Part shown: positions 4,170-58,100 of the stretch, in pieces
How the letters are laid out: each line of letters starts with the position of its first letter
Position numbering within the stretch: position 1 is the stretch's first letter
NCBI RefSeq assembly: GCF_002113885.1
Contig: NW_018405052.1
Span: forward strand, 11,418-75,417
Length of the DNA stretch: 64,000 nt
Direction: 5' to 3'
From: Mizuhopecten yessoensis
Lineage: Eukaryota
Made by a program: the position numbers and the translations under genes
Notes under the pieces: generated by a model
Database searches by the model: none
What the model saw: only the letters and a program-made list of their open reading frames with translations
Told to the model about the DNA's origin: nothing

Positions 4170-7100
4170 GTATGTTAAGCATTTATCTAATATTTTAAGT
4201 ATTTTCCCATTTGAACATAATACAGTAAACTTACACATTTTTGTGATGTGGCCACACGAGCCTTTAGACACACCTACCTTTTGAAAAACTAATATACACA
4301 GGCATTCGTCACAATTTATTACCCCTGTCCAATGAGGTTGGTAGGGGATATACAAATGGGTTTTCTTCCATGTGTCCGGTATTGCTTAAAAAGTCTTCTA
4401 GTTAACCTCATGAAACTTTGAAGGCGCATCATTCCAGTAGTCTAGTGTTGCTGTTTGATATTGAGGAGTTTTCATTTTTGACATTTTCCCAGTTGCCATG
4501 GAAATAAATAGCTGGAAATGCAAAAATTGTCGTTTCCGTAGCATACGTCAGGAACTGCTAGAGATAACTACCTAACTCTCTAACCACATGCATCTAGTTG
4601 TCCAGTAGTGCCTTCTGCTATTAGGGTAACCATAAGACTAAATAGCAGGAAATGCAAAAATAGTCAACTTATTCTTGATTAAATGCGTTCAACCTAGCAC
4701 ACTGTTGTCATGGTCATGTTTAACTATAGATAACTCTACTACTACAGCCGAACTCTTGCACAGAGATGTTGGATCTCCCAATCCCCGCAATTTATCTCAT
4801 GATGAAATCTGCCAGTAATTAATTCATAAAGAATAGAAATATCTTTGGTTTTAATGGTGTAAGATGGATTGATTTCTGACAAAAGGGGCAATTTCAGTGT
4901 ATTTTTTTCTTTTTTCATGGTTTGAATTACGTAGAAAAGAGGGAAAATGCAAATGAGTTTATTTAAAGGTCATAAAGGATATTTGAAATATATTCTTTCA
5001 GCTTAAGTAAGTCAAGTAAGGGATTGGTGCTGGAGTTTGTAAGGGGGAGGGGGGAACATAAGGATTTTAAATGTGGACATCTCCCCTTGCACACAAATTC
5101 TCCCTTAAAGACCCCCCCCCCCCCCCCTTTCCTCCCCTGTGTTGAATTTATTTGTATATTGTTTTTAGCTCACCTGCCCAAAGGGCAAGTGGGCTTATGC
5201 TATGACGCGCCATCCGTCTTCCGTCTGTTTGGCGTCAACTTTTTACTTTAAACAACTTTTTCTCAATAACCAAACAGCCTTGGATGATAATATTTGGCCA
5301 GGAGCATGCTGGGATAAAGGGCTACCAAGTTTGTTCAAACAAATGACCTTCACCCATTTTCAAGGTCACAGGGGTCAAATATGTTTAAAACTTTTGAACA
5401 ACTTCTCCTGAATACCAAAGATGCATAGGATCAAGATATTTGACAAGTATCATGCTCTGATGAAGGGCTACCAAGTTTGTTCAAATGAATGACCTTAATC
5501 TATTTTCAAGGTCACATATGTTTAAAACCTTTAAACAACTTCTTCTCAATAACAAAAAGGCCTTAGATGATGATATTTGGTCAGTAACATGGTGGGATGA
5601 AGGGCTACCAAGTTTTTTCAATCAATTGACCTGCACCCATCTTCAAGGTCACAGGGGTCAAATATATTTAAAACCTTTAAACAACTTCTCCTGAATACCC
5701 TACAAGATGCTTAGGATAATGATATTTGACCAGTATCACGCTGAGATGAAGGGCTACCAAGTTTGTTCAAACAAATGACCTTCACCCATTTTTAAAGTCA
5801 CAGGGGTGAAACATATTAAAAACCTTTCAACAACTTCTCCTCAATAACCAAAAGGCCTAGGATGATGATATTTGGCTAATATCATGCTTGGATGACTCAC
5901 GTTTTGACATACATATTTACTCGCATATTGACACACATACTGACATACATATTGACTCACTTACATATTGACACACATACTGACATACATATTGACTCAC
6001 ATATTGGCACACATACTGACATACATATTGACTCACTTACATATTAACACTCATACTGACAAACATATTGACTCACTTATGTATTGACACTCATACTGAC
6101 AAACATATTAACTCACTAATGTATTGACACTCATACTGACATACATATTAAGTCCCTTACGTATTGAAACACATATTGACACACATATTGACTCGCTTAC
6201 ATATTGACTCACATACTGACATACATATTGACTCACATACTGACAAACATATTGTCTAATTTACATATTGACTCACATTTTGACATACATATTGACACAA
6301 ACTGACAAACATATTGACTCACTTACATACTGACATATACTGACAAACATAATGACTCACTTACGTACTGACATATAATGACAAACATATTGACTCACTT
6401 ACATACTGATCGACATATACTGACAAACATATTGACTCGCTTACGTACTGACATACTGACAAACATTGACTCACTTACGTACTGACATATACTGACAAAC
6501 ATATTGACTCACTTACATACTGACATTAAGTGACAAACATATTGACTCACTTACATACTGACATACATATTGAATGGTGGTTGCAACTGATAAAATGTAG
6601 AACTGGATTTATATGATACTGACACAAAATGACCTGCTAATAAAATGTACCACATACGCTTTCCTTTTTTAGCTGAATGTCAGGCTGGAATGTTTTCCCC
6701 TACTGGCTATGAGCCATGTAAACCATGCCCAACAAATTTCTATCAGGTGTTGACTGGGCAGAAGGGATGTTTGGAATGTCCTGAAACACAGATAACAAAC
6801 AGTACTGGCAGTAACAGCTCAAACCAGTGTTGGACACCAGGTAAACCATTGTTTTGTGTGATATATAACGAGATATATAACTACCAGTACTAGCAGTATA
6901 AAGAACTTGAAGTAACAACTCAGCCCTGTGTGTTGTGTCAGTTAAACCATTGTTTTGTGAGATATATCACGACCAGTACTAGCAGTAACAACTCAGCCCT
7001 GTGTGTTATGTCAGTTAAACCGTGATTGTTTTGTGAGATATATAACGACCAGTACTGGCAGTAACAACTCAGCCCTGTGTGTTGTGTCAGGTAAACCATT

Positions 7101-10100
7101 GTTTTGTGAGATATATCATGACCAGTACTAGCAGTAACAACTCAGCTCTGTGTGTTGTGTCAGTTAAACCATTGTTTTGTGTGATATATCACGACCAGTA
7201 CTAGCAGTGACAACTCAGTCCTGTGTGTTATGTTAGGTAAACCATTTGTAAGAATTATTTATGATCATTCTTTGACTGCTATCTACTCTGTCACAATCAA
7301 AATGTCACACAAAAACTTTTCAATTGTTGTCATATATTAACCTGTATACAGTCTTCAATTACAAATCTAAAGAAAATGTTAAAAAAGCAGGAACTTATAC
7401 ATAGGAACCAATCACTAGTATCGGTACCACTTTGATATAGTTTATATAGTCTGTGGTATCATAGGAACCAATCACTAGTATAGGTACCACTTTGATATAG
7501 TTTATATAGTCTGTGATATCATAGGAACCAATCACTAGTATAGGTACCACTTTGTTATAGTTTGGGTAATCTGTGGTATCAAAGGAACCAATCACAAGTA
7601 TAGGTACCACTTTGATATAGTTTATATAGTCTGTGGTATCATAAGAACCAATCACTAGTATAGGTACCACTTTGTTATAGTTTATATAATCTGTGGTATC
7701 ACAGGAACCAATCACTAGTATAGGTACCACTTTGATATAGTTTATGTAATCTGTGATATCACAGGAACCAATCACTAGTATAGGTACCACTTTGTTATAG
7801 TTTATATAATCTGTGGTATCATAGGAACCAATCTCTAGTATAGGTACCACTTTGATTTAGTTTATATAATCTGTGGTATCATAGGAACCAATCACTAGTA
7901 TAGGTACTACTTTGATTTAGTTTATATAATCTGTGGTATCATAGGAACCAATCTCTAGTATAGGTACCACTTTGATTTAGTTTATATAATCTGTGGTATC
8001 ACAGGAACCAATCACTAGTATAGGTACCACTTTGTTATAGTTGATGTAATCTGTGGTATCACAGGAACCAATCACTAGTATAGGTACCACTTTGTTATAG
8101 TTGATGTAATCTGTGGTATCACAGGAACCAATCACTAGTATAGGTACCACTTTGATATAGTTTATATAATCTGTGGTATCATAGGAACCAATCACAAGTA
8201 TAGGTACCACTTCGTTATAGTTTATATAATCTGTGGTATCACAGGAACCAATCACTAGTATAGGTACTACTTTGTTATAGTTGATATAATCTGTGGTATC
8301 ACAGGAACCAATCACTAGTATAGGTAATATTTTGATATTATTCATATAATCTGTGGTGTCATAGGAACCAATCTCTAGTATAGGTACCAATTTGTTATAG
8401 TTTATATATCTGTGGTATCATAGGAACCAAGCTCTATTATAGGTACCACTTTGTAATAGTTTATGTAATCTGTGGTATCATAGGAACCAATCTCTATTAG
8501 TTTATATAGTCTGTGATATCATAGGAACCAATCACTAGTATAGGTACCACTTTGTTATAGTTGATGTAATCTGTGGTATCACAGGAACCAATCACTAGTA
8601 TAGGTACTATTTTGATATAGTTTATGTAATATGTGGTATCACAGGAACCAATCACTAGTATAGGTACTATTTTGATATTATTCATATAATCTGTGGTATC
8701 ATAGGAACCAATCTCTAGTATAGGTACCACTTTGTTATAGTTTATATATCTGTGGTATCATAGGAACCAATCTCTATTATAGGTACCACTTTGTAATAGT
8801 TTATGTAATCTGTGGTATCATAGGAACCAATCTCTAGTATAGGTACGATTTTGATATAGTTTATTTAATCTGTGGTATAATAGGAACCAATCACTAGTAT
8901 AGGTACTATTTTGTTATAGTTTATTTAATCTGTGGTATCATAGGAACCAATCTCTATTAGTTTATATAGTCTGTGATATCATAGGAACCAATCACTAGTA
9001 TAGGTACCACTTTGTTATAGTTGATGTAATCTGTGGTATCACAGGAACCAATCACAAGTATAGGTACCACTTCGTTATAGTTTATATAATCTGTGGTATC
9101 ATAGGAACCAATCTCTATTATACGTACCACTTTGTAATAGTTTATGTAATCTGTGGTATCATAGGAAACAGGAACCAATCACTAGTATAGGTACTATTGT
9201 GATATAGTTTATATAATCTGTGGTATCACAGGAACCAAGCACTAGGATAGGAACCACTTTGTTATAGTTTAGGTAATCTGTGGTATCATAGGAACCAATC
9301 TCTAGTATAGGTACCACTTTGTTATAGTTTCTGTAATCTGTGGTATCATAGGAACCAATCACTAGTATGGGTACCACTTTGATATAGTTTATATAATCTG
9401 TAGTATCACAGGAACCAATCACTAGGATAGGAACCATTTTGTTATAGTTTATGTAATCTGTGGTATCATAGGAACCAATCACAAGTATAGGTACCACTTC
9501 GTTATAGTTTATATAATCTGTGGTATCATAGGAACCAATCAATAGTATAGGTACCACTTTGATATAGTTTATATAATCTGTGGTATCACAGGAACCAATC
9601 ACTAGGATAGGAACCACTTTGTTATAGTTTATGTAATCTGTGGTATCATAGGAACCAATCTCTAGTATAGGTACCACTTTGTTATAGTTTATGTAATCTG
9701 TGGTATCATAGGAACCAATCTCTAGTATAGGTACTATTTTGATATAGTTTATTTAATCTGTGGTATCATAGGAACCAATCTCTAGTATAGATACCACTTT
9801 GTTATAGTTTATATAATCTGTGGTATCACAGGAACCAATCACAAGTATAGGTACCACTTTGTTATAGTTTATGTAATCTGTGGTATCATAGGAACCAATC
9901 TCTAGTATAGATACCACTTTGTTATAGTTTATATAATCTGTGGTATCACAGGAACCAATCTCTAGTATAGGTACCACTTTGTTATAGTTTATATAAGCTT
10001 TTTGAAGTACACCTCTTTCATTCATGTTTTAGAATTATGTCCTGCATCTCCCACACCATGCAGTGGAAATGGTTCATGCAGTGTGAAAAACCATGAAAAG

Positions 10101-13100
10101 TTCTGCAACTGCAATTCAGGTATTTAGAGTGACACCGCCAATACCAGCCTGTATTAATAACAATGTTACAATATAATTAAAAGGAAAATATGTTTTGTAG
10201 CTTTTGGATTAGCAATTACATGAATAAAATTGGAACGTTGTATAAAAGATTATTGTGGCCCCTTATATATATAATTAGGGCGGAGGAGCAGAACTGAATA
10301 GGGTAAATAGGAGACTTAAGTCTGCATGTGTCAGGTGCAAGGCAGGCTAGTCTGAGACCAGTGAAATCTCCATCTGGACTAGCTAGTGGTTTTAAAAGCT
10401 GCTAGTCCAATTTTCTAGACAAAATTTTAAATTACTTATAACGTTCAATGATATTGGGTGAGTAGAATTTGCACAAGGACTAGTAAAATGAAGTATACCG
10501 TTGATGATCCTGAAGAGATGAAAACACTCAGGCTACCAATATATTTGACATGGCATAATCATTTGTGTGTGAGGTGTAATGGCGGATACCTATTGGATGT
10601 ATATGGTAGGGCTAGTGACATCAAATATCCCTAATCCTTTACCTGGGCCCGTATATATGAAACCGTTCTCATGCTCAAGCATGGATTCTGATGTGCTGAA
10701 GCCAACTTTCTTGTTACTCGCTTAAATCCTGTAAAACAATCAAAAAGTCAAATGTAAACATTGAAACAGTAGTTAGCTTCAAGTCTCTTCAAAATGTTTC
10801 CAAAGCATTGACAAAATAAGATGTATTTATTAAGTTACAACAAGAACAATAAGTTAGACTTGAGCACAAAATCCATGCTTGAGCATGAGAACGGTTTCAT
10901 GAATACGGGCCCTGTACTAATGGAGAAAAGTAGTCTTTTTACATTATACATTGTATTGGTATGGAAGTTAGACCATTATGTATTTTAATTATTCAGATGA
11001 TTTGTTTAAGGAAGTATTCAGAAATGCAATCCTGATTGCAATGTGAATTTCTGGTGATTAAGGTGTTGTATTTTTTGTGTGCTATATTTTTAACAGGATA
11101 CTATGGTATGTGTAAGTTTTGTGTGCTATATTTTGGACAGGATACTATGGTATGTGTAATTTTTGTGTGCTATATTTTTGACAGAATACTATGGTATGTA
11201 TGTATGTGTAAGTTTTGTGTGCTATATTTTGGACAGGATACTATGGTATGTGTAATTTTTGTGTGCTATATTTTTTGACAGAATACTATGGTATGTATGT
11301 ATGTGTAAATTTTGTGTGCTATATGTTTGACAGGATACTCTGGAAGCGATTGTCAACTCATGAACAATTTCTGTGATGAGAGTCCTTGTGTCAGAGGAAC
11401 TTGTAATAATAACCAAGGTATTAGCTTCACCTGCACATGCGATACAGGTAAGTTATTTAAATTTTCAGAGAAAATTGGGGATATTAATTTGAGTGTATCT
11501 GTATGTTTTAAACATAGTATTGGAATGTTGGGAGAAAAATAATCATCCCCTACCTTGAGGGTGTGAAAGGGAATTCTCCAACCCTTGAAATGATTGTTTG
11601 AGCCAAGGGTTGGACAACCAAATGATCAACCTGAGAGTTGGAGATTCTTTGTCACACCCTCAACGTAGGAAAAGATTCTATTTATCCTACATATGAATAT
11701 TACTTCCTCCTTTATATAAAAATGAAGTCGTTCAGACTCCCCTTTTATTTTAAGGTTCTATTTTCGATTCAAAAGTCACCATTTTTGGTGGCCAGGTGAT
11801 GCTGTTTCTTTTCTAGACCAACTTTTTTTCAAAAACTAGTGCTCAACAAATTCTGTGGACAATGTCAGTCAATACTCAGAATTAATGCTTACAGGTTTTA
11901 CTGGGGACCGGTGTGATAGAGACACTACAAACCGTTGTACACCAAACACTTGCCAAGCTGGATCATGTAGAAATATAAAGAACGGTGCTGACTGTCTCTG
12001 TCCTCTTACTGGAGGATTCACACAGCCAAGGTAAGTAAAATATCTGGTCCTATATATCATAAACAGAACACAGCTTCATATTTTGATTCCCAAAATTTAC
12101 TTTTTGCTTTTCAGTAACAGGTCATTTCAGTTTATTAGGCCCCCGCATTGGAGATGGGGGTGCACTATAGTAATCAGTGTCCATTCACAATTTTATTTCC
12201 GACCTTATCTCCGAAACCAAAAGGCCTACCTTTCTGAAATTTGAAACGGTGATACCCTGTGAAATGTAAATGACAATACAGGATCATACCTGCTAATCCC
12301 TGAATCTCCCAATGGGGGTCATGACCCCTATTGGAAAAATCTGTGGGCGGTGATAACGCATGACAAAAAATTCACGTCAAAATTAATCATTTAATTTTTG
12401 CGACGTCACGGCATAACATATGTAATTGTGTCTTCTGGTATGGTTTAGGACTTTTTTAAAATAAATAAAACAACTCTTATTTTCACACATTTTGTTTTAT
12501 TACATTCTCTCTTTTCAAAATACTGATTTCCCTGTACATACAGGTAGTTTGAGTTAATTGTAGAAAACTTGGCATCTGATGCATACTGGAAGCATGAACT
12601 CATCTAGAAGCTCCTCTATCTATTTCTCCCTCTCATCTGCATGTACTACATTGGGAATCTGACTGTCTGCAGGTTGGAAACTGGAAAAAATAAAATATGC
12701 ATTTATGTTAAATACAGATTTTAAAGCAATCTTGCGATCGCGATATGGGAAAGCATTTTCATGCAGATTTTGGTAAATTAGAATGATCTGTCGTTGAGAA
12801 AGTAATATGCTCAGCACTGAAGTTGCTTAATAACGTGACTTTGCGTTTATAACCTTGTCGTCAGACATTGGAAATTCGATAATCGTATGTTTTATCATAA
12901 AACGCACCCCTACCTATCGAAAATAATTAAGTATACAGTACAGTTTACAATAAGAATGATCAGGCTCAATATTTTTATGACATAACAAAGCCACTCAAAA
13001 TCCCTTTTCCACAAAGTATTACAATAGCAGACATACTTTTTTTTTTTCTACGTTTAACGCAGTCCGAATTACGGTTGTGCATGTGAAATCGCACTGTTGT

Positions 13101-16100: not shown

Positions 16101-19100
16101 ATAACAACACCATTTCAGTTGTAAATGTGCATCTGGAAAAGCCAATGACGATAGGATTGTTTTAAAAATATTTATTCTATGTAGTTTTAAGGTTCATTGT
16201 ATTCCTCCGTGCAAAACTTCTATTTGTTTACGTTTGTCATCCTTGACCATTGAGCTTAAAAGTCATTTGGAAAACATGGTGTTTAGTTGAGTTTTTTAAA
16301 TGGAGAAATATATAAGGTAGTAGTATATAGATGATAAATAGTTTACCTTACAGTATTTTCAGTGTTTGTCATCCATATACAGTGATAATCTATAAATAAA
16401 AACTACTAAAGCTAGGTATAAGAGATTTTTTTCAAACATGATAATAAAAAGTACGTAGATAAGAGCAAGCACAAATCTCATGCAAATCTGATTGTGTAAG
16501 GATATATCTTTGAAGGGGCTTAAACAGTTTTACCTATCCTTAGTTTATAATTAATGTTATGGAACTGACTTATTTCATTAGGACTGGTAGGTGGTATGAA
16601 GAAAAATGTGTAAATTAGATTGAATAGATCTGTGATAACTTTACCTGTGCTCAACTTAAGTTTTCTACTCATAACTTGACCAAAATAGAAAACTATTCCT
16701 TACATTATAGTACTTTTCTGTAAATGTTTCCCAACTATTTTTGACATTTTCATAACTTAATGATGTATAATCAGTTCAATAAAAGTAACAGCCAGAAATT
16801 TGCAGAAATCTTGGTTTACTCTGCCAACATCTACTGTTGATAAGTTCCTGTAATAGTGTCTCGTTAATGGAAAGTTTGCGTAGCTCGGCTCGACTTTCTG
16901 AATTGTCAACACCATGGAAACTTGTTCAGGTTTTATGGTCAGACTATAAGATGATACCTCCAGTTTGTGAGGACAATGGTTATTGAGTGAATGTCTGTGT
17001 AAACAGTATATAAACAATAAAAATCAGACTAACAAAAATATTCAACTTATCAGATGGTACAACTATTGTTGTATACTGTAGGAGCACTTGGTCAAATAGA
17101 TACTAACATTGTATAGCAGTAAAATGAATTATTGATTACTGTATTACAGTTTTAATCATCAACAAATTACATAAGTATTGGTCATGAAAAGTTCTTTTTT
17201 ACACAACCAATAAAAGTTTCTATGTGACGTTTCAATGACTAGTACGGTATGTACACTGTCACCTTCATCAGACAAATGACCAGTGAAGCATGGTGCTGGA
17301 TCGAGACAACTTACCTGAGACTAATTGGCTCCTTTAAACCTTCCGACTTAAGCTACGGAAATACAGTAATGAAAAATTAAAAGAAAAACTCAGAATGAAC
17401 ATAACAAATAATTTGAATGTTTTTCTTGTGTTACATTTGTAGTACAAGATGCTGGAAATGGGAAATGTACATCTACGGTGAAGTGTCCTCTGGGTAATGC
17501 ATTCTGTAATAATGGCAGCTGCAACAACGATAAGTGTTTCTGTCTGAATGGCTATACAGGTTCACGCTGTCAGCATGACTTTACAGACTGTACCATGAAC
17601 TCGTGCAAGAATGGTGGAACATGTGTAGACAAACATTCGGGTTTTGACTGTATGTGTATGTCTGGCTATACAGGTGAGTCTGTCTGACGTACACCATCTG
17701 TGTAATACTGTAATAAAATGTCTTAACTATACAGGTGAGTCTGTCTGACGTACACCATCTGTGTAATACTGTAATAAAATGTCTTAACTATACAGGTGAG
17801 TCTGTCTGACGTACACCATCCGTGTAATACTGTAATAAAATGTGTTAACTATACAGGTGCGTCTGTCTGACGTACATCATCTGTGTAATACTGTAATAAA
17901 ATGTGTTTACTATACAGGTGAGTCTGTCTAACGTACACCATCTGTGTAATACTGTACTATAATCTGTTAACTATACAGGTAAGTCTGTCTAACGTACACC
18001 ATCTGTGTAATACTGTACTATAATCTGTTTACTATACAGGTGAGTCTGCCTAACGTACACCATCTGTGTAATACTGCCTGTAAATTTTTAACCGTTTAAG
18101 ATATCTTGATCAAACTTGAAGTATACCTGCATCCCTAACAGAAGGTGTGCAGTGCACTGGAATTAGGTCTTGTGCCCCACTATATACAGAGTTATTGCCC
18201 TTTGTTTATTTTTTATACGGAAGTTTGTCCCGAGCATAAGTTCCATGTTATTTCACCTTCATTGACCAAATTTACCATATTCATGTATCTTGGGAAGGCG
18301 GAATCTCTCGCACTGCAATCGGGTCTTGTGCCCCACTATATTAAAAGTTTAAATAAAGTAAACGAAGAAGCATCAACACCAAGGATTCCGTTACAGGAAG
18401 AGGTTTTATTGTTGACATGTTTAAGTTTATAAAAAATAATGAGCCATTAGAGGAACCAGATTGTAATCAGATGTGTGAAAATTCCTATTTTTATATACAT
18501 GTTAATGTTTCTATTATAAGTACCAAAGCTGCCGAAACTTAACAAAATTGTTAAGACAATAATTTAAATGTTTAATGGTTTAGGATATACACACCTTTAT
18601 CTTGATGTGACCTTTCTATTCTTCCTAATATTGGCTAATAAGGAGACATTCTAGTTTAAACTAATGTTCTTGAACCACTTTCAAGGTCTTAGGGGTCGAA
18701 TGTATGAAACAATTGCTTCTGAATTACTAAGAAGTATTGGGCAATGATATTTTTCCTGTAGCTTAATAGTAAAGTGATATGAAGTGTTGGAGCTGAAAAA
18801 AAGATCTAGACAAGGTCACGTTAGTAACAGAAGTAAATCTTTGACCTTTAAACTCTTTGAAGGTCACAGATGTAAGATGAATAACAGGTAAGAGCAATAA
18901 AGACCACTTGAGTTTGATAAGATGAACACAATTTGATCGTGCTATCAGAATAGGCAATGGGGGTCTGTCTCTTCCTTTTAAGACTAAGTCCATGGGGCAC
19001 AACGAGACCCAAACTGTTTAACCATATAAACAATTTCTTGGTGTAAAAGACCAATAGACATTCTACCCGATTGATATTTAAGGGTAAAAACCCCTTCCCT

Positions 19101-22100
19101 TAGGGACTTAGTCTTTGGCTTATACCCATGGGTTTGGAAACATAGCCCAAATGGAGAGCCAAAGTTAGATTTGTTATACTCAAGAAACTAAATTTTAATA
19201 AACCAGCTCTAGGATTGTCTACGCCTTATCTTGTATGTCGTGTATACAATCTAGTTTAAAAAAAAGGAAGAATCCAAGTCGAACAAATATACTCATAATC
19301 TCATATTGCCAAATAATGTGCATTTTTGAAAATATTGACTTGCAGCAAATTTATATTTGATTAACCATTTGAAATGCTATAACGGAATGACTGTTGTTTT
19401 GTAGGGAACGACTGCAGTGTCAACATTAATGATTGTTTGGGTCAGTGCCAAGGTGAACATGTCATTTCAACAAGCGTAGGATGTATGGACAAAGTTAATG
19501 ACTTCATGTGCAACTGTGAAGCAGGATGGACAGGCAAAAACTGCACAGTGAGTCTTATTTCTACATTGAAGTAATAAGGGATGATATAGTGTTTAAAGCA
19601 CTAAATGGTCCCTTCATTATGACAAACCCCTTCCAACTAATTGAGGGGGTAGGAGGTATATAATAGTCACTGTCAGTGCATCCAAATTTAGTTTTTATTG
19701 GCTCACCAGTCCGAAGGGCTAGTGCTATGGCGAAGCGTCTGACATTGGTCCGTCGTTCATCAACTTTTCCTTTAAGCAACTTCTACTGAAGAAAGGATAG
19801 GACTAGAGTCATGATATTTGGCTGAAAGCATCGTTGGTAAAAGCACCACTAAATTTGAGAATGAAAAATGACCTTGACCTTCTTTCAAGGTCACAGGGGT
19901 CTCAAATGTGTCAAATACTTAAAAAGACTTCTTCTGCAGAACTGAAAGGTATAGAATCTTAATATTGGCGGGTAACTTCTTTTGATTGAGCACTACAAAG
20001 TTTGAGAATGAAAATGACCTTGACCTACACTTTAATGATCACAGGGGTAAAATATGTCGAACCCTTCAAACAACTTCTTCTGTAGAACTGAAAGAACTGA
20101 AGACGCCATCATCCAAATATTGAGATTGTGTTATCATTTGGCTGGTGGCTTCTTGGAATAGAGCCTGACAAAGTTTGAGAATGAAAATGACCTTGACCTA
20201 CTTTCAAGGTCACAGGGGTAAAATATAGCAAAAACATCAGAAGATTTCTGATGAATAATTAAATGGCATAAAATCATAATATTTGGCTGTAGGTTTCACG
20301 GATTGAGCTCAACTAAGTTTGCAATTGAAAATTACTTCAACCTGCTATCAAGGTCACAGGGGTCAAATATAGCAAAAACTGTAAACAGCTTTTTTTGAGA
20401 AAGGGAATGGCATAGACTTCCAAGTGTTACAACTGAATGAGTTTGTAAGACTTTCAAGTCACTGTGGTGAAATGTGTTGAAATCTTATAACAGGTTGTTT
20501 TGAATAACCAAGAAACATAGGTAAAGAGTTTGATCCTATAGGTTTATATAAATCTTATTTGGTATAAAGTATTCTTTGATCCTAAAGGTTTATATAAATC
20601 TTATTTGATATAAAGTATTCTTTGATCCTATAGGTTTATATAAATTGTATTTGATATAAAGTATTCTTTGATCCTATAGGTTTATATAAATCTTATTAGA
20701 TATAAAGTATTCTTTGGTCCTATAGGTTTATATAAATCTTATTTGATATAAAGTATTCTTTGATCCTATAGGTTTGTATAAATCTTATTTGATATAAAGT
20801 ATTCTTTGATCCTATAGCTATATATAGGTTTATATAAATCTTATTTGATATAAAGTATTCTTCGATCCTGTAGGTTTATATAAATCTTATTTGATATTAA
20901 GTATTCTTTGATCCTATAGGATTATATAAATCTTATTTGATATAAAGTATTCTTGGCCCAATATGATTATTCTTGACCAAATATGATTCAATGTTGTATA
21001 AACCATGCCCCAACCCCAAAGGGTACAAAGGAATGGGACCCAATAAGGTAAGGGTGTTGCTGAGGGACAGAGCCAATGTTTGGAATATGTGTAGTACAGT
21101 AAAACATTTAATGAAAACTTTTGCTATGACTGCTTTAATGTCCTGGTGAGCAATACAGTCCCACTGGGCATTATAGTATGGTAACATTAAGTCAAACACT
21201 TGATTATATTTTTGGTCATTGGTCAAGGTTAAAGGGTCAAAAGTTATGAGAAAATCAGGATGGGAAGGAATGAGGGTGGTGTAGTGGGGTATATCAATGT
21301 GAGCCTCTGATCACTTATTTACCAAAATCTGAAACAACTGTTAAACCCTGATGTAAAGTTTAATGTTTTGATAGCAAGAGACCTGGTGTCATTATAACTG
21401 GTCTTCAGCATGCTAGTGTATTTGTTGAATGACTTAACATACTTTTAAGGCAACTCGTTTGATTTATTGGAACACTTTGCTGAAATGATGAGAGGAAGCA
21501 TAATACATACAATTGGTACCATCTTGGTGCATCACTACTGCTTTTTATTTACAGGAGAACATTGATGAATGTGCTAGCTACCCTTTTTACTTACAGGAGA
21601 ACATTGATGAATGTACTAGCTACCCTTTTTATTTACAGGAGAACATCGATGAATGTGCTAGCTACCCTTTTTATTTACAGGAGAACATCGATGAATGTGC
21701 TAGCTACCCTTTTTATTTACAGGCGAACATTGATGAATGTGCTAGCTACCCTTTTTATTTCCAGGAGAACATTGATGAATGTACTAGCTACCCTTTTTAT
21801 TTACAGGAGAACATTGATGAATGTACTAGCTACCCTTTTTATTTACAGGAGAACATTTGTGAATGTGCTAGCTACCCTTTTTATTTACAGGAGAACATTG
21901 ATGAATGTACTAGCTACCCTTTTTATTTACAGGAGAACATTTATGAATGTGCTAGCTACCCTTTTTATTTACAGGAGAACAGTGATGAATGTGCTAGCTA
22001 CCCTTTTTATTTACAGGAGAACATTGATGAATGTACTAGCTACCCTTTTTATTTACAGGAGAACATCGATGAATGTGCTAGCTACCCTTTTTATTTACAG

Positions 22101-25100
22101 GAGAACAGTGATGAATGTGCTAGCTACCCTTTTTATTTACAGGAGAACATCGATGAATGTGCTAGCTACCCTTTTTATTTACAGGCGAACATTGATGAAT
22201 GTGCTAGCTACCCTTTTTATTTACAGGAGAACATTGATGAATGTGCTAGCTACCCTTGCAGGCATGGAGCAAGCTGTACTGATGGGGATAATACCTACAC
22301 ATGTAATTGTACAATAGGTTGGACTGGACAAAATTGTGATACTGCAATAAACAACTGCCCTGACAATAAATGCAAAAATGAAGGAAACTGCTTCAACATG
22401 AATGAAGGATTCTTCTGCAGGTATAGGATATTTTCTGTGTGCATATCATCCATTCTACACTTGTATCAGACATTTAAAAAGTATGTAAAAAAAAGTAGAC
22501 ATTTTAGAGGTATATCATTAAGAATTACCAGGTATATAAGACATTATACAGTTAAATTAGACTACCTACAGGTATATTAATCAACCTACAGGTATATTAA
22601 TCATCCTACAGGTATATCAGACAACTAACAGAAATATCAGACAACCTACACGTATATTAAATATTCTTATAAATATTCTTCAGGTACATCAGACACTCTT
22701 AAGGTACATCAGACACTCTTCAGGTACATCAGACACATCAGGCACTCTAAAGGTACATCAGACAATCTAAAGGTACATCAGACACTCACTCTAAAGGTAT
22801 ATCAGACACTCCCTCTAAAGGTACATCAGACACTCTTCAGGTACATCAGACACTCTTAAGGTTCATAAGACACTCTAAAGGTACATCAGACACTCTCCAG
22901 GTACATCAGACACTCTCCAGGTACATCAGACACTCTTCAGGTACATCAGACACTCTTCAGGTATATCAGACACTCTAAAGGTACATCAGACACTCTAAAG
23001 GTACATCAAACACTCACTCTAAAAGTACATCAGACACTCTAAAGGTACATCAGACACTCTTCAGGTACATCAGACACTCACTCTAAAGGTACATCAGACA
23101 CTCTAAAGGTACATCAGACACTCTAAAGGTACATCAGACACTCTAAAGGTACATCAGACACTCTAAAGGTACATCAGACACTCTAAAGGTACATCAGACA
23201 CTCTAAAGGTACATCAGACACTCTAAAGGTACATCAGACACTCTAAAGGTACATCAGACACTCTAAAGGTACATCAGACACTCTAAAGGTACATCAGACA
23301 CTCTAAAGGTACATCAGACACTCTAAAGGTACATCAGACACTCTACAGGTACATCAGATACTCTAAAGGTACATCAGACACTCTAAAGGTACATCAGACA
23401 CTCACTCTAAAGGTACATCAGACACTCACTCTAAAGGTACATCAGACACTCTTCAGGTAACTTAGACAACCTTCAAATATATCAAACATTTTTCAGGTAA
23501 ATCAGACAACTTACACATATATTTAATATTCTTTAGGTAAATCAGACAACCTACACATATATTTCACATTCTTTAGGTAAATCAGACAACCTTCACATAT
23601 ATTTTACATTCTTTAGGTAAATCAGACAACCTACACATATATTTTACATTCATTAGGTAAATCAGACAACCTACACATATATTTTAAATTCAAGTAAATC
23701 TGACTACCTACAGGTATATTAACTCATTCAGCCCTGGAGACACATTTTAACTCTTCCAATGCAAAGGTTGGAATAGTTCATTATGAAATTTAAGGGATTA
23801 ATGAGTACAACATTCTTCAGATAAATCAGACAACCTACAGTTATATTAGACAACCTACAGGTAAATCAGACAATGTACAGGTATATCAGACAATCTACAG
23901 ATATAACATACAACCTATAGGTATATCAGACAACCTATAGGTATATCAGACATTCTACAGGTAAATCAGACAATGTACAGGTATATCAGACAATCTACAG
24001 ATATAACATACAACCTACAGGTATATCAGACAACCTACTGGTATATCAGACATTCTACAGGTATATCAGACAACCTTCTGGTATATCAGACATTCTACAG
24101 GTATATCAGACAACCTACAGGTATATTTGACTACCGACAGGTATATCAGACATTCTTCTAGGGCCTTTTGTTGTATTGAGGTATAATGCTCAGGCATATG
24201 GGTCTGTTATTTATTAATATTTGTTTATTAGAGAATCTTTTTTGATTCAGTTGCCTTGGAGGAACAACAGGGAAAACATGCTCCAACTTCCCTCCTGTTT
24301 GTAACACCATCACTCCATGTACTGCAGCCAAAGGACAGTGTGTTGATGAGGAAGGCACAGCAAAGTGTGACTGCATACCAAGTAAATTTCTCATTGTCAT
24401 TTATTGATTGCTTGTTGTTTATTTCTGGTAGATTTATCATCACTAGTTGTCTGCTTGTTGACTTGACCTGTAACATGGTACTGGTCCAGCCTCTAAACTA
24501 TGTCTTTAACTTCAACATGTAGATTGTTCATCCTGCAGTACTCTTGTTAATGAAGTTCCAGAAGGCCTTGAGAAATAGGGGTTGTCAATGTGTTTGAAAT
24601 GATTAACCTTGAAATTGGTTCAAGGTCACTGAGACAAAATCTGTTAGTATTACTGCAAACAACATTATATCAAAAAGTTCCTAAGGTCTAGAGCAGTATG
24701 TTATGAAGACCAGCCATGCACAATATGTATGCCCCGCCATAAAATGGGGGGGGGGGGGGGGGATATAGTGTTGCCCATGTCTGTCCCGTCCCGTCCCACC
24801 CATGAGCGGGGGCATTTATGTCTTACAAACATTTTCTAGTTCTTAAATATTGTGTTGAGGTCAAGGTAAGTTTTAAGAGCTGGCAGGGATGAAAGGTTCA
24901 TTCGAGGTTTTGTATTCAAGACTACTTCTCCTGAAACATTTGCTGGATTTTAATTGCTGTTGACATTTAACATCATTAGGACAGGTCTTTGTCCCCTAGA
25001 GGCAGAGAAAGGACAATTTGGATGTTTTAAACATTAGATGTAGACTCCCAAGTATTTTTAATTTTAACTAAAATTATGATTTATAGGAAATAAATGAAGG

Positions 25101-49100: not shown

Positions 49101-52100
49101 GCCCCAGTTTTTATAGTGTCTGTGTACCACTATATACATAGCCCCAGTGTTCATAGTGTCTATGTACCACTATGTATTCATAGCCCCAGTTTTTATAGTG
49201 TCTGTGTACCACTATATACGTAGCCCAGGGTTTATAGTGTCTGTGTCATTCTTTGGAAGGTCAGTAAATTTAATATTATTTTTCTTTCCAGGGAAATACT
49301 GTCAGTTCCTGTGGATGGTGTCTCAGTGACCTTTTTGCCCTTTGAAGCCTTGACATATGTAGTGTATAATACTGATACTATGGATTTTGAGGTAAGCAGG
49401 AGTTTTTAGTGAATATTGTGTCCTTATATTACATGTCTCAATACGGGATTCACTAGATGTCAGATTTTGTAGAGTGAATTTTTACTCCATCATAGGTCAG
49501 TGTTTTATTTTGTATGAGGTTTAACATTCACTAATGCCCATTTTCCCCATCATTAAATCTGTGTAACATTTTTTTTGGAGGATTTGTTTGCCTACATACT
49601 ATAATTGTTTCAGCCCTTGCCCTTATTCTCAAGGAACAGAAACAGTGTGTAATTTTCATCTTCTCTGTTCTTTTCAGCTAGTTACAGCTGGAGCTATTCT
49701 ACGAAAAAATGTTCAGTCTATCACTATAACACAGTCAATGTCTTGTGCCAGTGGATACCAGCTTGTTGGTGAACAATGTGGTAAGTATACACAAATGATG
49801 GGACTGGACATCAGATAGTGGTCAGTGTGGTAAGTATACACAACTGATGGGACTGGACATCAGATGGGGGTCAGTGTGGTAAGTATACATAACTGATGGG
49901 ACTGGACATCAGATGGGGGTCAGTGTGGTAAGTATACATAACTGATGGGACTGGACATCAGATGGGGGTCAGTGTGGTAAGTATACATAACTGATGGGAC
50001 TGGACATCAGATGGTGGTAAGTGTAATAAGTATACACAACTGATGGGATTGGATATCAGATGGTGGCCAGTGTGGTAAGTATACATAACTGATGGGACTG
50101 GACATCAGATGGTGGTCAGAGTGATAAGTATACACAACTGATGGGACTGGACATCAGATGGTGGTCAGTGTGATAAGTATACACAATTGATGGGACTGCA
50201 TATCAGATGGTGGTCAGTGTGATAAGTATACACAATTGATGGGACTGCATATCAGATGGTGGTCAGTGTGATAAGTATACACAACTGATTGGACTGGACT
50301 TCAGATGGTGGTCAGTGTGATAAGTATACACAATTGATGGGACTGCATATCAGATGGTGGTCAGTGTGGTAAGTATACACAACTGATGGGGCTGGACATC
50401 AGATGGTGGTCAGTGTGATAAGTATACACAACTGATTGGACTGGACATCAGATGGTGGTCAGTGTGATAAGAATACATAACTGATGGGACTGGATATTTG
50501 ATGGTGGTCAGTGTGGTAAGTATACACAACTGATGGGGCTGGACATCAGATGGTGGTCAGTGTGATAAGTATACACAACTGATGGGACTGCATATCAGAT
50601 TGTGGTCAGTGTGGTAAGTATACACAACTGATGGGGCTGGACATCAGATGGTGGTCAGTGTGATAAGTATACACAATTGATGGGACTGCATATCAGATGG
50701 TGGTCAGTGTGATAAGTATACACAACTGATGGGACTGCATATCAGATTGTGGTCAGTGTGGTAAGTATACACAACTGATGGGGCTGGACATCAGATGGTG
50801 GTCAGTGTGATAAGTATACACAATTGATGGGACTGCATATCAGATGGTGGTCAGTGTGATAAGTATACACAACTGATTGGACTGGACTTCAGATGGTGGT
50901 CAGTGTGATAAGTATACACAACTGATGGGACTGCATATCAGATTGTGGTCAGTGTGGTAAGTATACACAACTGATGGGACTGGACATCAGATGGGGGTCA
51001 GTGTGGTAAGTATACATAACTGATGGGACTGGACATCAGATGGGGGTCAGTGTGGTAAGTATACATAACTGATGGGACTGGACATCAGATGGTGGTCAGT
51101 GTGATAAGTATACACAACTGATGGGACTGGACATCAGATGGTGGTCAGTGTAATAAGTATACACAACTGATGGGATTGGATATCAGATGGTGGTCAGTGT
51201 GGTAAGTATACATAACTGATGGGACTGGACATCAGATGGTGGTCAGAGTGATAAGTATACACAACTGATGGGACTGGACATCAGATGGTGGTCAGTGTGA
51301 TAAGAATACATAACTGATGGGACTGGATATTTGATGGTGGTCAGTGTGGTAAGTATACACAACTGATGGGCCTGGACATCAGATGGTGGTCAGTGTGATA
51401 AGTATACACAACTGATGGGACTGNTGTTCATGCTCCTGTGTTTCAGTTCAATGCTATAACTGTGGTGACTAGTATGTTCATGCTCCTGTGTTTCAGTTCA
51501 GTGATATAACTGGTGACTAGTATGTTCATGTTCCTTTGTTTGGGTTCAATGCATTAACTGTGGTGACTAGTATGTTCATGTTCCTGAGTTTGTGTTCAAT
51601 GCTTTAACTGTGGTGACTAGTATGTTCATGTTCCTTTGTGTGTGTTCAATGCTTTAACTGTGGTGACTAGTATGTTCATACTCCTGTGTTTGTGTTCAAT
51701 GCTAGAACTGTGGTGACTAGTATGTTCATGCTCCTGTGTTTGTGTTCAATGATATAACTGTGGTGACTAGTATGTTCATACTCCTGTGTTTGTGTTCAAT
51801 GCTAGAACTGTGGTGACTAGTATGTTCATGCTCCTGTGTTTCAGTTCAGTGATATAACTGGTGACTAGTATGTTCATGTTCCTTTGTTTGTGTTCAATGC
51901 TTTAACTGTGGTGACTAGTATGTTCATGCTCCTGTGTTTGTGTTCAATGCTATAACTGGTGACTAGAATGTTCATGTTCCTTTGTTTGTGTTCAATGCTT
52001 TAACTGGTGACTAGTATGTTCATGTTCCATTGTTTGTGTTATATGCTATAACTGTGGTGACTAGTATGTTCATGCTCCTGTGTTTGTGTTCAATGCTATA

Positions 52101-55100
52101 ATTGGTGACCAGTATTTCATGCTCCTGTGTTTCAGTTCAATGCTATAATTGTGGAGACTATGATGTTCATGTTCCTTTGTTTGTGATCTATGCTATAACT
52201 GTGGAGACTAGTATGTTCATGCTCCTGTGTTTCATTTCATTGCTATAACTGTGGAGACTAGTATGTTCATGCTCCTGTGTTTCAGTTCAATGCTTATAAC
52301 TGTGGAGACTAAAATGTTCATGCTCCTGTGTTTCAGTTCAATGCTATAACTGTGGTGACTTTAATATATTCATGTTTCTGTGTTTCAGTTCAATGCTATT
52401 ACTGTGGAGACTAAAATGTTCATGCTCCTGTGTTTCAGTTCAATGCTTATAACTGTGGAGACTAGTATGTTCATGCCCCTGTGTTTCAGTTCAATGCTTA
52501 TAACTGTGGTGACTAGTAAGTTCATGCTCCTGTGGTTCAGTTCATTGCTATAACTGTGGAGACTAGTATGTTCATGCTCCTGTGTTTCAGTTCAATGCTA
52601 AAACTGTGGAGACTAAAATGTTCATGCTCCTGCCTGTGTTTCAGTTCAATGCTATAACTGTGGTGACTAGAAGTTCATGCTCCTGTGTTTCAGTTCAATG
52701 CTATAACTGTGGAGACTAAAATGTTCATGCTCCTGTGTTTCAGTTCAATGCTTATAACTGTGGAGACTAAAATGTTCATGCTCCTGTGTTTCAGTTCAAT
52801 GCTATAACTGTGGTGACTAGTATGTTCATGCTCCTGTGTTTCATTTCAATGCTATAACTGTGGAGAGTAGTATGTTCATACTCCTGTGTTTGTGTTCAAT
52901 GCTATAACTGTTGTGACAAGTATGTTCATGCTCCTGTGTTTCAGTTCAATGCTATAACTGTGGAGACTAAAATGTTCATGCTCCTGTGTTTCAGTTCAAT
53001 GCTATAACTGTGGTGACTTTAATATGTTCATGTTTCTGTGTTTCATTTCAATGCTATAACTATGGAGACTAAAATGTTCATGTTCCTTTGTTTGTGTTCA
53101 ATGCTATAACTGTGGTGACTAGTATGTTCATGCTCCTGTATTTGTGTTCAATGCTATAACTGGGGACCAGTATGTTCATGCTCCTGTGTTTGTGTTCAAT
53201 GCTATAACTTGTGACTAGTATGTTCATGCTCCTGTATTTGTGTTCAATGCTATAACTGGTGACCAGTATGTTCATGCTCCTGTGTTTGTGTTCAATGCTA
53301 GAACTGGTGACTAGTATGTCATGTTCCTTTGTTTGTGTTCAATGCTTTAACTGTGGTGACTAGTATGTTCATGTTCCTTTGTCTTTGTTCAATGCTTTAA
53401 CTGTGGTGACTAGTATGTTCATGTTCCTTTGTTTGTGTTATATGCTATAACTGTGGTGACAAGTATGTATGTTCATGCTCCTGTGTTTGTGTTCAATGCT
53501 ATAACTGGTGACTAGTATGTTCATGTTCATTTATTTTTGTTCAATGCTTTAACTGTGGTGACTAGTATGTTCATGCTCCTGTGTTTCATTTCAATGCTAT
53601 AACTGTGGAGACTAGTATGTTCATGCTCCTGTATTTCAGTTCAATGCTATAACTGTGGTGACTAGTATGTTCATTCTCCATTGTTTCAGTTCAATACTAT
53701 AACTGTGGAGACTAGTATGTTCATGCTCCTGTGTTTCATTTCAATGCTATAACTGTGGAGACTAGTATGTTCATGCTCCTGTATTTCATGTGTTTGTGTT
53801 CAATGCTATAACTGGTGACTAGTTTGTTCATGCTCCTGTGTTTGTGTTCAATGCTATAACTGTGGTGACTAGTATGTTCATACTCCTGTGTTTGTGTTCA
53901 ATGCTATAACTGGTGACCAGTATGTTCATGCTCCTGTGTTTGTGTTCAATGCTATAACTGTGGTAACTAGTATGTTCATACTCCTGTGTTTTTGTTCAAT
54001 GCTTTAACTGTGGTGACTAGTATGTTCATACTCCTGTGTTTGTGTTCAATGCTATAACTGGTGACTAGTTTGTTCATGCTCCTGTGTTTGTGTTCAATGC
54101 TATAACTGGTGACCACTATGTTCATGCTCCTGTGTTTGTGTTCAATGCTATAACTGGTGACTAGTATGTTCATGTTCCTTTGTTTGTGTTCAATGCTTTA
54201 ACTGTGGTGACTAGTATGTTCTTGTTCCATTGTTTGTGTTATATGCTATTACTTAGGTGACTAGTATGTTCATGCTCCTGTGTTTGTGTTCAATGCTTTA
54301 ACTGTGGAGACTAGTATGTTCATGCTCCTGTGTTTCAGTTCAATGCTATAATTGGTGACCAGTATGTTCATGTTCCTTTGTTTGTGTTCTATGCTATAAT
54401 TGTGGAGACTATGATGTTCATGCTCCTGTGTTTCATTTCAATGCTATAACTGTGGAGAATAGTATGTTCATGTTCCAGTGTTTCAGTTCAATGTTATAAC
54501 TGTGGTGACTAAAATGTTCATTCGCCTGTGTTTGTGTTCAATGCTATTACCGGTACTGTAGAGACTACTATGTTCATGCTCCTGCGTTTCAGCTCAATGC
54601 TATTACTGTGGAGACTAGGATGTTCATGCTCCTGTTTTTGTGTTCAATGCTATTACTGTGGAGACTAGTATGTGCATGCTCCTGTGTTTTATTTCAATGC
54701 TATAACTTGTGACTAGTATGTTCTTGTTCCATTGTTTGTGTTATATGCTTTAACTGTGGTGACTTGTATGTTCATGCTCCAGTGTTTCAGTTCAATGTTA
54801 TAACTGTGGTGACTAGAAGTTCATGCTCCTGTGTTCCAGTTCAATGATATAATTGGTGACTAGTATGTTCTTGTTCCATTGTTTGTGTTATATTCTATAA
54901 CTGTGGTAACTAGTATGTTCATGCTGTGTTTTTGTTCAATGCTTTAACTCTGGTGACTAGTATGTTCTTGTTCCATTGTTTGTGTTATATTCTATAACTG
55001 TGGTAACTAGTATGTTCATGCTGTGTTTTTGTTCAATGCTTTAACTCTGGTGACTAGTATGTTTATGTTCCTTTGTTTGTGTTATATTCTATAACTGTGG

Positions 55101-58100
55101 AGACTTAAATGTTCATGCTCCTGAGTTTCAGTTCAATGATATGACTGTGGAGACTAGTATTTTCATGCTCCTGTGTTCCAGTTCAATGATATAATTGGTG
55201 ACTAGTATGTTTATGTTCCTTTGTTTGTGTTCAATGCTATTACCGGTACTGTAGAGACTACTATGTTCATGCTCCTGCGTTTCAGCTCAATGCTATTACT
55301 GTGGAGACTAACATGATCATGCTCCTGAGTTTCATTTTAATGCTATAACTGTGGTAACTAGTATGTTCATGTTCATTTATTTTTGTTCAATGCTTTAACT
55401 CTGGTGACTAGTATGTTCAAGTTCCTTTGTTTGTGTTATATTCTATAACTGTGGTAACTAGTATGTTCATGCTTCTGTGTTTCAGTTCAAGGCTGTAACT
55501 GTGGTGACTAAAATGTTCATGCTACTGTGTTTCAGTTCAACGCTATAACTGTGGAGAATAGTATGTTCATGTTTCTGTGTTTCAGGTCAATGCTATAACT
55601 GTGGAAACTAGTATGTTCATGCTCTTGTGTTTGTGTTCAATGCTTTAACTGTGGTGACTTGTATGTTCATGCTCCTAGTATGTTCATACTCCTGTGTTTG
55701 TGTTCAATGCTTTAACTCTGGTGACTAGTATGTTTATGTTCCTTTGTGTTCAATGCACTAACTGTGGTGACTAAAATGTTCATTCGCCTGTGTTTGTGTT
55801 CAATGCTATAACGGTGGTGACTAGTATGTTCTTGTTCCATTGTTTGTGTTATATGCTTTAACTGTGGAGACTAAAATGTTCATGCTCCGGTGTTTCAGTT
55901 CAATGTTATAACTGTGGTGACAAGTATGTATGTTCATGCTCCAGTGTTTCAGTTCAATGTTATAACTGTGGTGACTAAAATGTTCATGCTACTGTGTTTC
56001 AGTTCAACGCTATAACTGTGGAGACCAAAATGTTCATGCTCATGTGTTTCAGTTCAACGCTATAACTGTGGAGACCAAAATGTTCATGCTCATGTGTTTC
56101 AGTTCAAGGCTGTAACTGTGGTGACTAAAATGTTCATTCGCCTGTGTTTGTGTTCAATGCTTTAACTGTGGTGACTAGTATGTTCATGCTCCTGTGTTTC
56201 AGTTCAATGCTGTAACTGTGGTTACTTTAATATATTCATGTTTCTGTGTTTCAGTTCAATGCTGTAACTGTGGTGACTAAAATGTTCATGCTCCTGTGTT
56301 TGTGTTCAATGCTATTACCGGTACTGTAGAGACTACTATGTTCATGCTCCTGTGTTTCAGTTCAATGCTATAACTGTGGTGACTAGTATGTTCATGTTTC
56401 TGTGTTTCAGTTCAATGATATAACTGTGGAGACTAGTATGTTCATGCTCCAGTGTTTCAGTTCAATGCTTATAACTGTGGTGACTAGTATTTTCATGCTC
56501 CTGTGTTTCAGTTCAATGCTATAACTGTGGAGACTTAAATGTTCATGCTCCTGTGTTTCAGTTCAATGCTTTAACTGTGGAGACTAGTATGTTCATGCTC
56601 CTGTGTTTCATTTCATTGCTATAACTGTGGAGACTAAAATGTTCATGCTCCTGTGTTTGTATTCAATGCTATAACTGTGGAAACTAGTATGTTCATGTTC
56701 CAGTGTTTCAGTTCAATGCTATAACGGTGGTGACTATAATGTTCATGTTCCTGTGTTTCAGTTCAATGCTATAACTGTTGTGACTAGTATTTTCTTGCTC
56801 TTGTGTTTCAGTTCAATGCTATAACTGTGGAGACTAGTATGTTCATGCTCCTGTGTTTCATTTCAATGCTATAACTGTGGAGACTAAAATGTTCATGTTC
56901 CTGTGTTTGTGTTCAATGCTTTTTTTGGAGACTCGTATGTTCATGCTCCTGTGTTTCAGTTCAATGTTCCGCGGGCCAGTACTATGACACTAACACCAAG
57001 ATGTGTAAGTTTTGCCAGAAGAACACCTACCTGGATGAAGCTGGACAAACCATCTGTAAACCTTGTGATGGCAATAAGGTTACGTTGAATGAGGGAGCTA
57101 CTTCTCAAAGTCTTTGTGTTGGTATGTTACCTTACCGGTAATTTGTAAATTGATGGTTAAGATCTGTATATTTCCATGTTGATGACATTTCTATATGCCT
57201 GTCGTTAACAAAACGTTGCATAATAGTAAACCTTACTATGGTCTATCAATCCATCCATCTGTTAAATTTCCCTTGTCATTGCTCTCCTGCCTTTATAAAT
57301 AGATTGTCTTGAACCCCAGATAACTTGTATATGCTTGTCTACTCTTTTGACAAGTACATTGGTATCAGAAGCATGTATCTGTCCATCTGCACTTCAAGAT
57401 TACTTGCTTAGATATATCTTTCAATTTTGTTGATAATTATTGTACTCTTTATGTAAAACAACTTGACGTACATGAATTAATATTGAGTGTAGCCCCAGCA
57501 AAATGCATTTTAGAAGCTATGTGTTTTAAGTCACAGTGTTTTACGAATATCATTAAACAGATATCTTATGCTTTTTCTAGTGAACTTTTGTCACTTAAAA
57601 ATTGAGTATACATGATATGGCCTACGAAATCATTTCTTTGTGATTAAGTAACTGTTCCAAACTTTATATAAATGGGAGTGATAGTATGTTTACTACTGAG
57701 CAATAAGGACATGAAAAACTGTCTGATGTCTTGTACTTAATCTTCAACAACAACAAGAGCATCAGTATTTTTTTCTGTTCTTTAACTCATTCACCCCTGA
57801 AATTTCTTAATGAACTATTCCAACCTTTGAATTGGAAGAGTTCAAATGTGTCTTTAGGGGTGAATGAGCTGGTACTCAAGGATACTTGTACCTCGCCAAA
57901 AATGTAACTAAGTATTGGAAAGCTGTTTTTTCCACATGAATATAGGTTTGATAAATAACTTATGAAGAGAAAAGCACACCTTGCAGGACCTAATGAAAAA
58001 AATTGCAAAGGTGAAATAAACACAATGTCATCAACAACAGTGCCTGAACAGTAAAAATTCCCTGGACATTACACCACCAGTATTCAAACCCTGGACTTCA

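Follow-up and report, generated by a model that had tools for sequence, protein, structure and literature searches.

In Mizuhopecten yessoensis, the tandem array of 61-nt units that follows exon 8 of a large EGF-domain gene is very probably a duplication of the exon-intron boundary, likely neutral: only the first donor is found in use in assembled RNA, and the intron carrying the copies is likely removed in one step. The window analysed here is a stretch of 64,000 nucleotides (RefSeq assembly GCF_002113885.1, contig NW_018405052.1, positions 11,418 to 75,417 of the forward strand), and positions are given within it unless another contig or locus is named; the main features are collected in Table 1. 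The host gene spans 4011-63917 and beyond, and its transcript contig measures about 13.4 kb. Twenty-nine exons were read in the window, the first 27 forming a single open frame; 28 of the 29 were used for the matrices and junction counts, exon 28 (putative acceptor at 63049) being left out. Pfam matches over the cut-offs were obtained for EGF and Ephrin_rec_like, together with a weak LamG match (6 of the 10 exons scanned had a match), while a Toxin_32 match in exon 8 was weak, fell below the cut-off and was taken as the EGF cysteine pattern. A protein homologue search with exon 15 returned 11 candidates, none of them significant, among proteins up to 2000 aa; thus, the host gene is named by its domains only. 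Exon 8 joins exon 9 in frame via a split glycine codon (phase 1), and it is matched without differences by a transcript contig in all three RNA assemblies.

Table 1. Features of the host gene discussed in the text (window positions).
Feature	Position	Strand	Description
Exon 8	17443..17673	+	EGF-like; open frame, Pfam EGF PF00008 over cut-off
Authentic donor GTGAGT	17674..17679	+	Sole donor seen in use
61-nt array	17674..18039	+	6x 61 nt: intron head and exon-tail copy
Seventh copy (partial)	18040..18100	+	Alignment to units 1 and 5
Exon 9	19405..19547	+	Its acceptor closes the 1731-nt intron; open frame and RNA joint
Donor array, 73-nt unit, exon 2	6841..7246	+	Internal joints 2/5 AG/GT, 3/5 AG/TT
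Acceptor array, 44-52-nt unit, exon 4	11073..11343	+	Five copies: acceptor, 9 nt, GTATG
Acceptor array, 42 nt x 17	21541..22257	+	Open in frame; absent from transcript contigs
Donor array, 49 nt x 33	49777..51423	+	AG before GT nowhere; absent from transcript contigs
Acceptor array, 50 nt x 110	51425..56966	+	Last acceptor used; transcript contigs start at 56959

The six full units stand head to tail directly after the end of exon 8 (17673). Exon 8 terminates in CTATACAG, followed by gtgagt, and each of the six units likewise ends in CTATACAG; the next pseudo-donors lie at 17735, 17796, 17857, 17918, 17979 and 18040. Four units start with GTGAGT, unit 4 with GTGCGT and unit 6 with GTAAGT; units 1, 2, 3 and 5 contain TTAAC, units 4 and 6 TTTAC. 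These letters, including the 61-nt period, the GT starts and the TATACAG-type ends, are as the original prediction described them. Moreover, all six units contain CTGAC or CTAAC, with the A at -48 relative to the AG and no other AG intervening. Tandem Repeats Finder (TRF) reported period 61, 6.7 copies, 95% matches and a score of 696, which shows that the array does not arise by chance. The seventh copy starts with GTGAGT at 18040, is well preserved to about 18076 and then diverges; it also has TTAAC. Pairwise differences among units range from 0 to 7 nt, units 1 and 2 being identical and units 5 and 6 having variants in common, and this pattern fits stepwise growth. Beyond this locus no match to the 61-nt unit was found in the genome, a result that does not prove rarity.

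The repeated unit combines the intron head, donor included, with a copy of the exon tail, in agreement with the proposed duplication of the AG/GT boundary (the slash marks the joint). The exon-tail copy is exact over 8 nt and possibly extends up to 28 nt in diverged form, with 20 of 28 positions matched in a gapped alignment; the exact breakpoint is indeterminable because the unit tail resembles the flank too. Because at least the last 8 bases of exon 8, with the terminal CAG, are included in the unit, every copy takes on a GT...AG appearance. The units had been described as looking like complete mini-introns: this is real as far as the letters go, but it is merely expected, a by-product, as any duplication across a CAG/GT donor gives GT...CAG units. 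Exons ending in AG number 14 of 28 in the host gene and 42 of 205 in the genome sample described below. The array would have originated by local tandem duplication across the exon 8/intron 8 donor and subsequent amplification, likely by slippage or unequal crossing-over, to which the two unit sub-families and the decayed last copy point.

The RNA evidence is centred on the joint 17673-19405. It occurs in all three RNA assemblies, each from a different study, at contig depths of 236.2, 68.6 and 51.5, and in one read of a raw-read run that is shallow, with about one read per junction. Among the joints listed, no contig connecting the array to exon 9 occurs in any of the three assemblies, nor do the transcript contigs contain an additional exon. 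The bin 17706-17872 has zero depth in four of four RNA runs, while the depth in 17873-18039 is wholly due to a single 91-nt unspliced contig, present in two runs with depth 2.8 and 3.4, comparable to the other intronic contigs (2-6.6). Since only the first donor is seen in use in assembled RNA, the array is likely harmless. RNA contigs drop rare forms, so that minor use of the pseudo-donors lies below their reach; the animals that were the source of the RNA may have different alleles of the array, and the joint 17673 to 17735 is uninformative, units 1 and 2 having the same sequence.

The identity of units 1 and 2 could also be taken as a sign that the array is an assembly artefact or has a wrong copy number, and no single read or contig was seen across the whole array, the copy number being that of the assembly. 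We consider an artefact extremely unlikely, as the units differ in an ordered manner by 2-7 nt and the 91-nt contig, obtained independently in two RNA runs, covers an internal joint. It crosses that one joint unspliced in two of the three RNA assemblies, which indicates that the repeat is present in other samples too; its two base differences represent sequence variation only and say nothing on copy number.

A human gene provides the closest tested case for boundary duplication with a single donor in use. At the 37-bp VNTR of F7 intron 7, splicing takes the first donor alone, irrespective of the number of copies (PMC1557585); that report places CBS intron 13, LMNB2, PDGF and 6-16 alongside it. 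The likeness extends to a first unit that spans the exon end and is followed by identical pseudo-donors, to the use of the first donor only, and to a similar copy number (5-9 in F7); the differences are that the joints are TGG/GT in F7 and CAG/GT here, so that each joint of the scallop array offers an AG, and that the evidence on the F7 mechanism comes from tests in mammalian cells. By analogy, the spliceosome would keep to the donor adjoining the full exon, through exon definition or a 5'-to-3' choice of the first donor, and the copies would leave with the 1731-nt intron, likely in one step.

Alternatively, the pseudo-donors may be leaky, with some transcripts reading G-E-S-V-stop, being lost to nonsense-mediated decay (NMD) and thus allowing copy number to tune the output of the gene. 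That read-through from a downstream donor yields G-E-S-V-stop was borne out, so stable use of any of them would truncate the protein, and the same early stop results whichever one is chosen. The six pseudo-donors are strong, with 7.3-11.3 bits against 9.5 bits for the authentic donor, which unit 6 exceeds, and human CBS and 6-16 make use of one or two pseudo-donors, as stated in the introduction of the F7 report (PMC1557585). Nevertheless, leaky use is improbable: the zero count of array-to-exon 9 contigs in the three assemblies argues against it, although as a weak test because NMD targets would be rare here, and donor choice in F7 was unchanged when repeats were added or removed (PMC1557585).

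The second alternative is recursive removal, in which the internal CAGs act as acceptors and the donor is rebuilt at each step, so that the array clears itself like a ratchet. This too is unlikely, and steps of two or more units are more plausible than single-unit steps. Of the features of recursive sites, an AG directly before a strong, donor-like sequence is present at all six joints, whereas a very long intron is absent: recursion is known from very long introns (PMC13196383), and the intron here measures 1.7 kb. Further differences from such sites are the weak pyrimidine tract, the spacing of 61 nt and the position of the branch-like motif, 9 nt before the AG.

The intermediates of recursive sites are exon-to-site joints, lariats and saw-tooth coverage. 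None was seen among the contigs, which drop rare forms, or in the raw run, with its one or so read per junction. Recursion at a low level is compatible with the RNA data, because mature mRNA is the same for one-step and stepwise removal.

Acceptor strength was scored with a matrix built from 177 predicted acceptors of the genome sample. The internal AGs reach 4.4-7.8 bits (n = 6), compared with 5.4-13.6 bits in 28 real acceptors of the host gene; three of the six (6.0, 6.4 and 7.8 bits) lie within the range of the real ones, and all six rank above 85% or more of the 2727 intronic AGs, a point in favour of recursion. The internal acceptors are weak, though not impossible. Their pyrimidine share is 0.41-0.59, versus 0.53-0.94 in the 28 real acceptors, and the adenine of TTAAC lies 9 nt from the AG, a distance at which a YTRAY adenine occurs in none of the 177 sampled acceptors, the peak being at 23; both observations speak against recursion, and the weak acceptor signals had been correctly foreseen. 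The adenine of CTGAC or CTAAC, at -48, is about 14 nt from the donor of the same unit, which by spacing rules is too close for a one-unit intron. It could serve steps of two or more units (122 nt or more), and its presence in every unit with no intervening AG fits such steps. The shortest intron was 119 nt among 81 sampled and 168 nt among 27 of the host gene, a further point against recursion.

In favour of recursion, PMC3265369 gives a minimal intron of about 60 nt and, for a duplicated segment with AGGT, splicing of about 16% in human cells, so that the idea is not far-fetched. The same paper presents the gain of introns by AGGT duplication (Rogers model; ATP2A1), in which, as here, a duplicated AG/GT sets GT and AG around extra DNA. 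In that system, however, the duplicated segment is exonic and has to be removed as a new intron separating two exons; in the scallop gene it sits at a donor that was already present, wholly within the old intron, and no additional intron was observed.

The host gene contains five further junction-spanning arrays (six in total). In the 73-nt array GT is lost and AG retained at three of the five internal joints, which would be dead ends were the AG used. The 49-nt donor array has an AG at none of its 32 internal joints, and it is nevertheless spliced out whole: in the transcript contigs of three of three RNA assemblies the distance from exon 9 to exon 23 is 2116 nt, the exact sum of model exons 10-22, indicating that the 42-, 49- and 50-nt arrays are left out of the mRNA, provided that there are no compensating errors and no array-free alleles in the animals from which the RNA came. 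AG/GT is therefore not needed for tolerance. Arrays devoid of AG being tolerated as well, the idea that stepwise removal makes such repeats self-neutralising finds no support. Likewise, the AG/GT columns of the 61-nt array belong to the 50 of 61 columns that are invariant, and their conservation within the array does not exceed chance (P=0.44), which lends recursion no support.

Several observations on the sister arrays are reported in their own right. The array at 11073-11343 includes five copies of an acceptor followed by 9 nt and GTATG, resembling in-frame microexons of three codons. In the region 21541-22257, acceptors recur 17 times in tandem at a spacing of 42 nt, each of them in frame and with nearly equal scores (10.7-11.7 bits); an earlier acceptor would add 14 aa per unit, and none of three transcript contigs contains any such addition. 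In the 49-nt array (49781-51423), 18 of 32 internal donors have changed from GT to AT, while the remaining columns are 96% kept; a single variant unit may have spread, or selection may have acted against the pseudo-donors. The last 184 nt of the 50-nt acceptor array have a depth of 473-800 in a DNA run, versus about 20 beside it. Candidate junction-spanning arrays were also noticed in upstream and downstream parts of the host gene, at L005 885-2078, L007 3908-4047 and L008 7109-7911.

To place these repeats in the context of the genome, junctions were sampled from the DNA around 226 of 300 domain matches (135 of 150 LDLa, 91 of 150 sushi), after dropping very long open frames, small duplicate-looking contigs, duplicated loci and matches with stops. 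The sample comprises 205 donors and 177 acceptors, all of them predicted junctions, and a repeat was scored when a 20-nt word spanning the junction was found again at most 250 nt away. Junction-spanning repeats were found at 8 of 205 donors (three of them borderline) and 5 of 177 acceptors, 13 of 382 when pooled; the same test on intronic positions gave 218 of 8521 (donor) and 162 of 7425 (acceptor), altogether 380 of 15946 or 2.4%. The idea of junctions as repeat hot spots found no support, there being no significant enrichment over intronic positions (donors P=0.26, acceptors P=0.60, pooled P=0.23), although the background test counts low-complexity matches too, so that a modest enrichment could stay hidden. 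In the host gene 5 of 56 junctions have repeats, compared with 116 of 2596 intronic positions (P=0.11). This first rough count, with about 3% of sampled junctions carrying repeats, suggests no excess over the intronic repeat density.

Preferential survival of AG/GT arrays likewise found no support: two of the eight donor arrays are AG/GT, versus 40 of 197 other donors (P=0.67, with small numbers), and the remaining six lack the AG, so no enrichment accompanies the supposed self-neutralising joint. One of these two, a longer example of the same AG/GT kind, is a chain of about 63-nt units in which 39 of 45 matched joints are AG/GT; it follows the LDLa exon 354043-354153 of another contig (L079, G000:C2300:347520-356439, minus strand), and hence the 61-nt AG/GT array is not unique even in this genome. 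Such a chain would be a better case of a ratchet than the 61-nt array. The notion that a minisatellite AG/GT chain works as a ratchet, covering at least two units per step by means of the -48 branch, so that expansion creates recursive sites de novo, appears even a shade less probable than recursion in the 61-nt array itself; if recursion were true, it would represent a route by which recursive sites arise. Two other arrays emerged from the survey. The first, on contig G000:C76686 (L075, minus strand), is a 63-nt donor array after exon 24088-24201, with at least 19 copies that are 100% identical, about 37 nt of exon in the unit and TG/GT joints; it is either very young or collapsed in the assembly. 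The second surrounds the LDLa exon L089 (G000:C5415:637302-637409, minus strand), which has one repeat of 95 nt across the acceptor and another, 39 nt x 36, across the donor.

Tandem copies of splice boundaries have been described in amphioxus as mirage minisatellites, in Adh3, the globins BflGb6 and BflGb9, troponin C and PGBD5, and these leave splicing undisturbed (PMC3087553; PMC3902484). The 61-nt array resembles them in consisting of head-to-tail copies of an exon-intron boundary, in the size of its unit, which falls within the 10-160 bp given there, and in the 95% match among copies (PMC3087553; PMC3902484). In both systems the end copy is diverged from the others, donor and acceptor ends are affected in one gene, and a normal mRNA is produced from the authentic site, here through the joint 17673-19405. 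Three of the four listed mirage features are found in the 61-nt array, the fourth being copy-number variation between alleles; the scallop case differs in the animal and in having six arrays within a single gene. Searches of the open-access literature yielded no account of bivalve mirages, and none of recursive splicing through such arrays or of recursive sites arising in this way.

Taken alone, the 61-nt array adds little to what is known from amphioxus mirages and human F7. The set of arrays offers RNA evidence, for one gene, that the splice site closest to the exon prevails at donors and acceptors alike, even where 16 in-frame acceptors of equal strength compete. Arrays of this type can mislead gene prediction.

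Other repetitive elements were encountered besides the junction-spanning arrays. The interval L010 582-3488, inside an intron, has overlapping reading frames with reverse-transcriptase-like motifs and resembles a DIRS-type retrotransposon. Finally, short dispersed repeats that are present in very many copies occur in the window at 17196-17290 and 57780-57868, the latter reaching a summed contig depth near 10^6.
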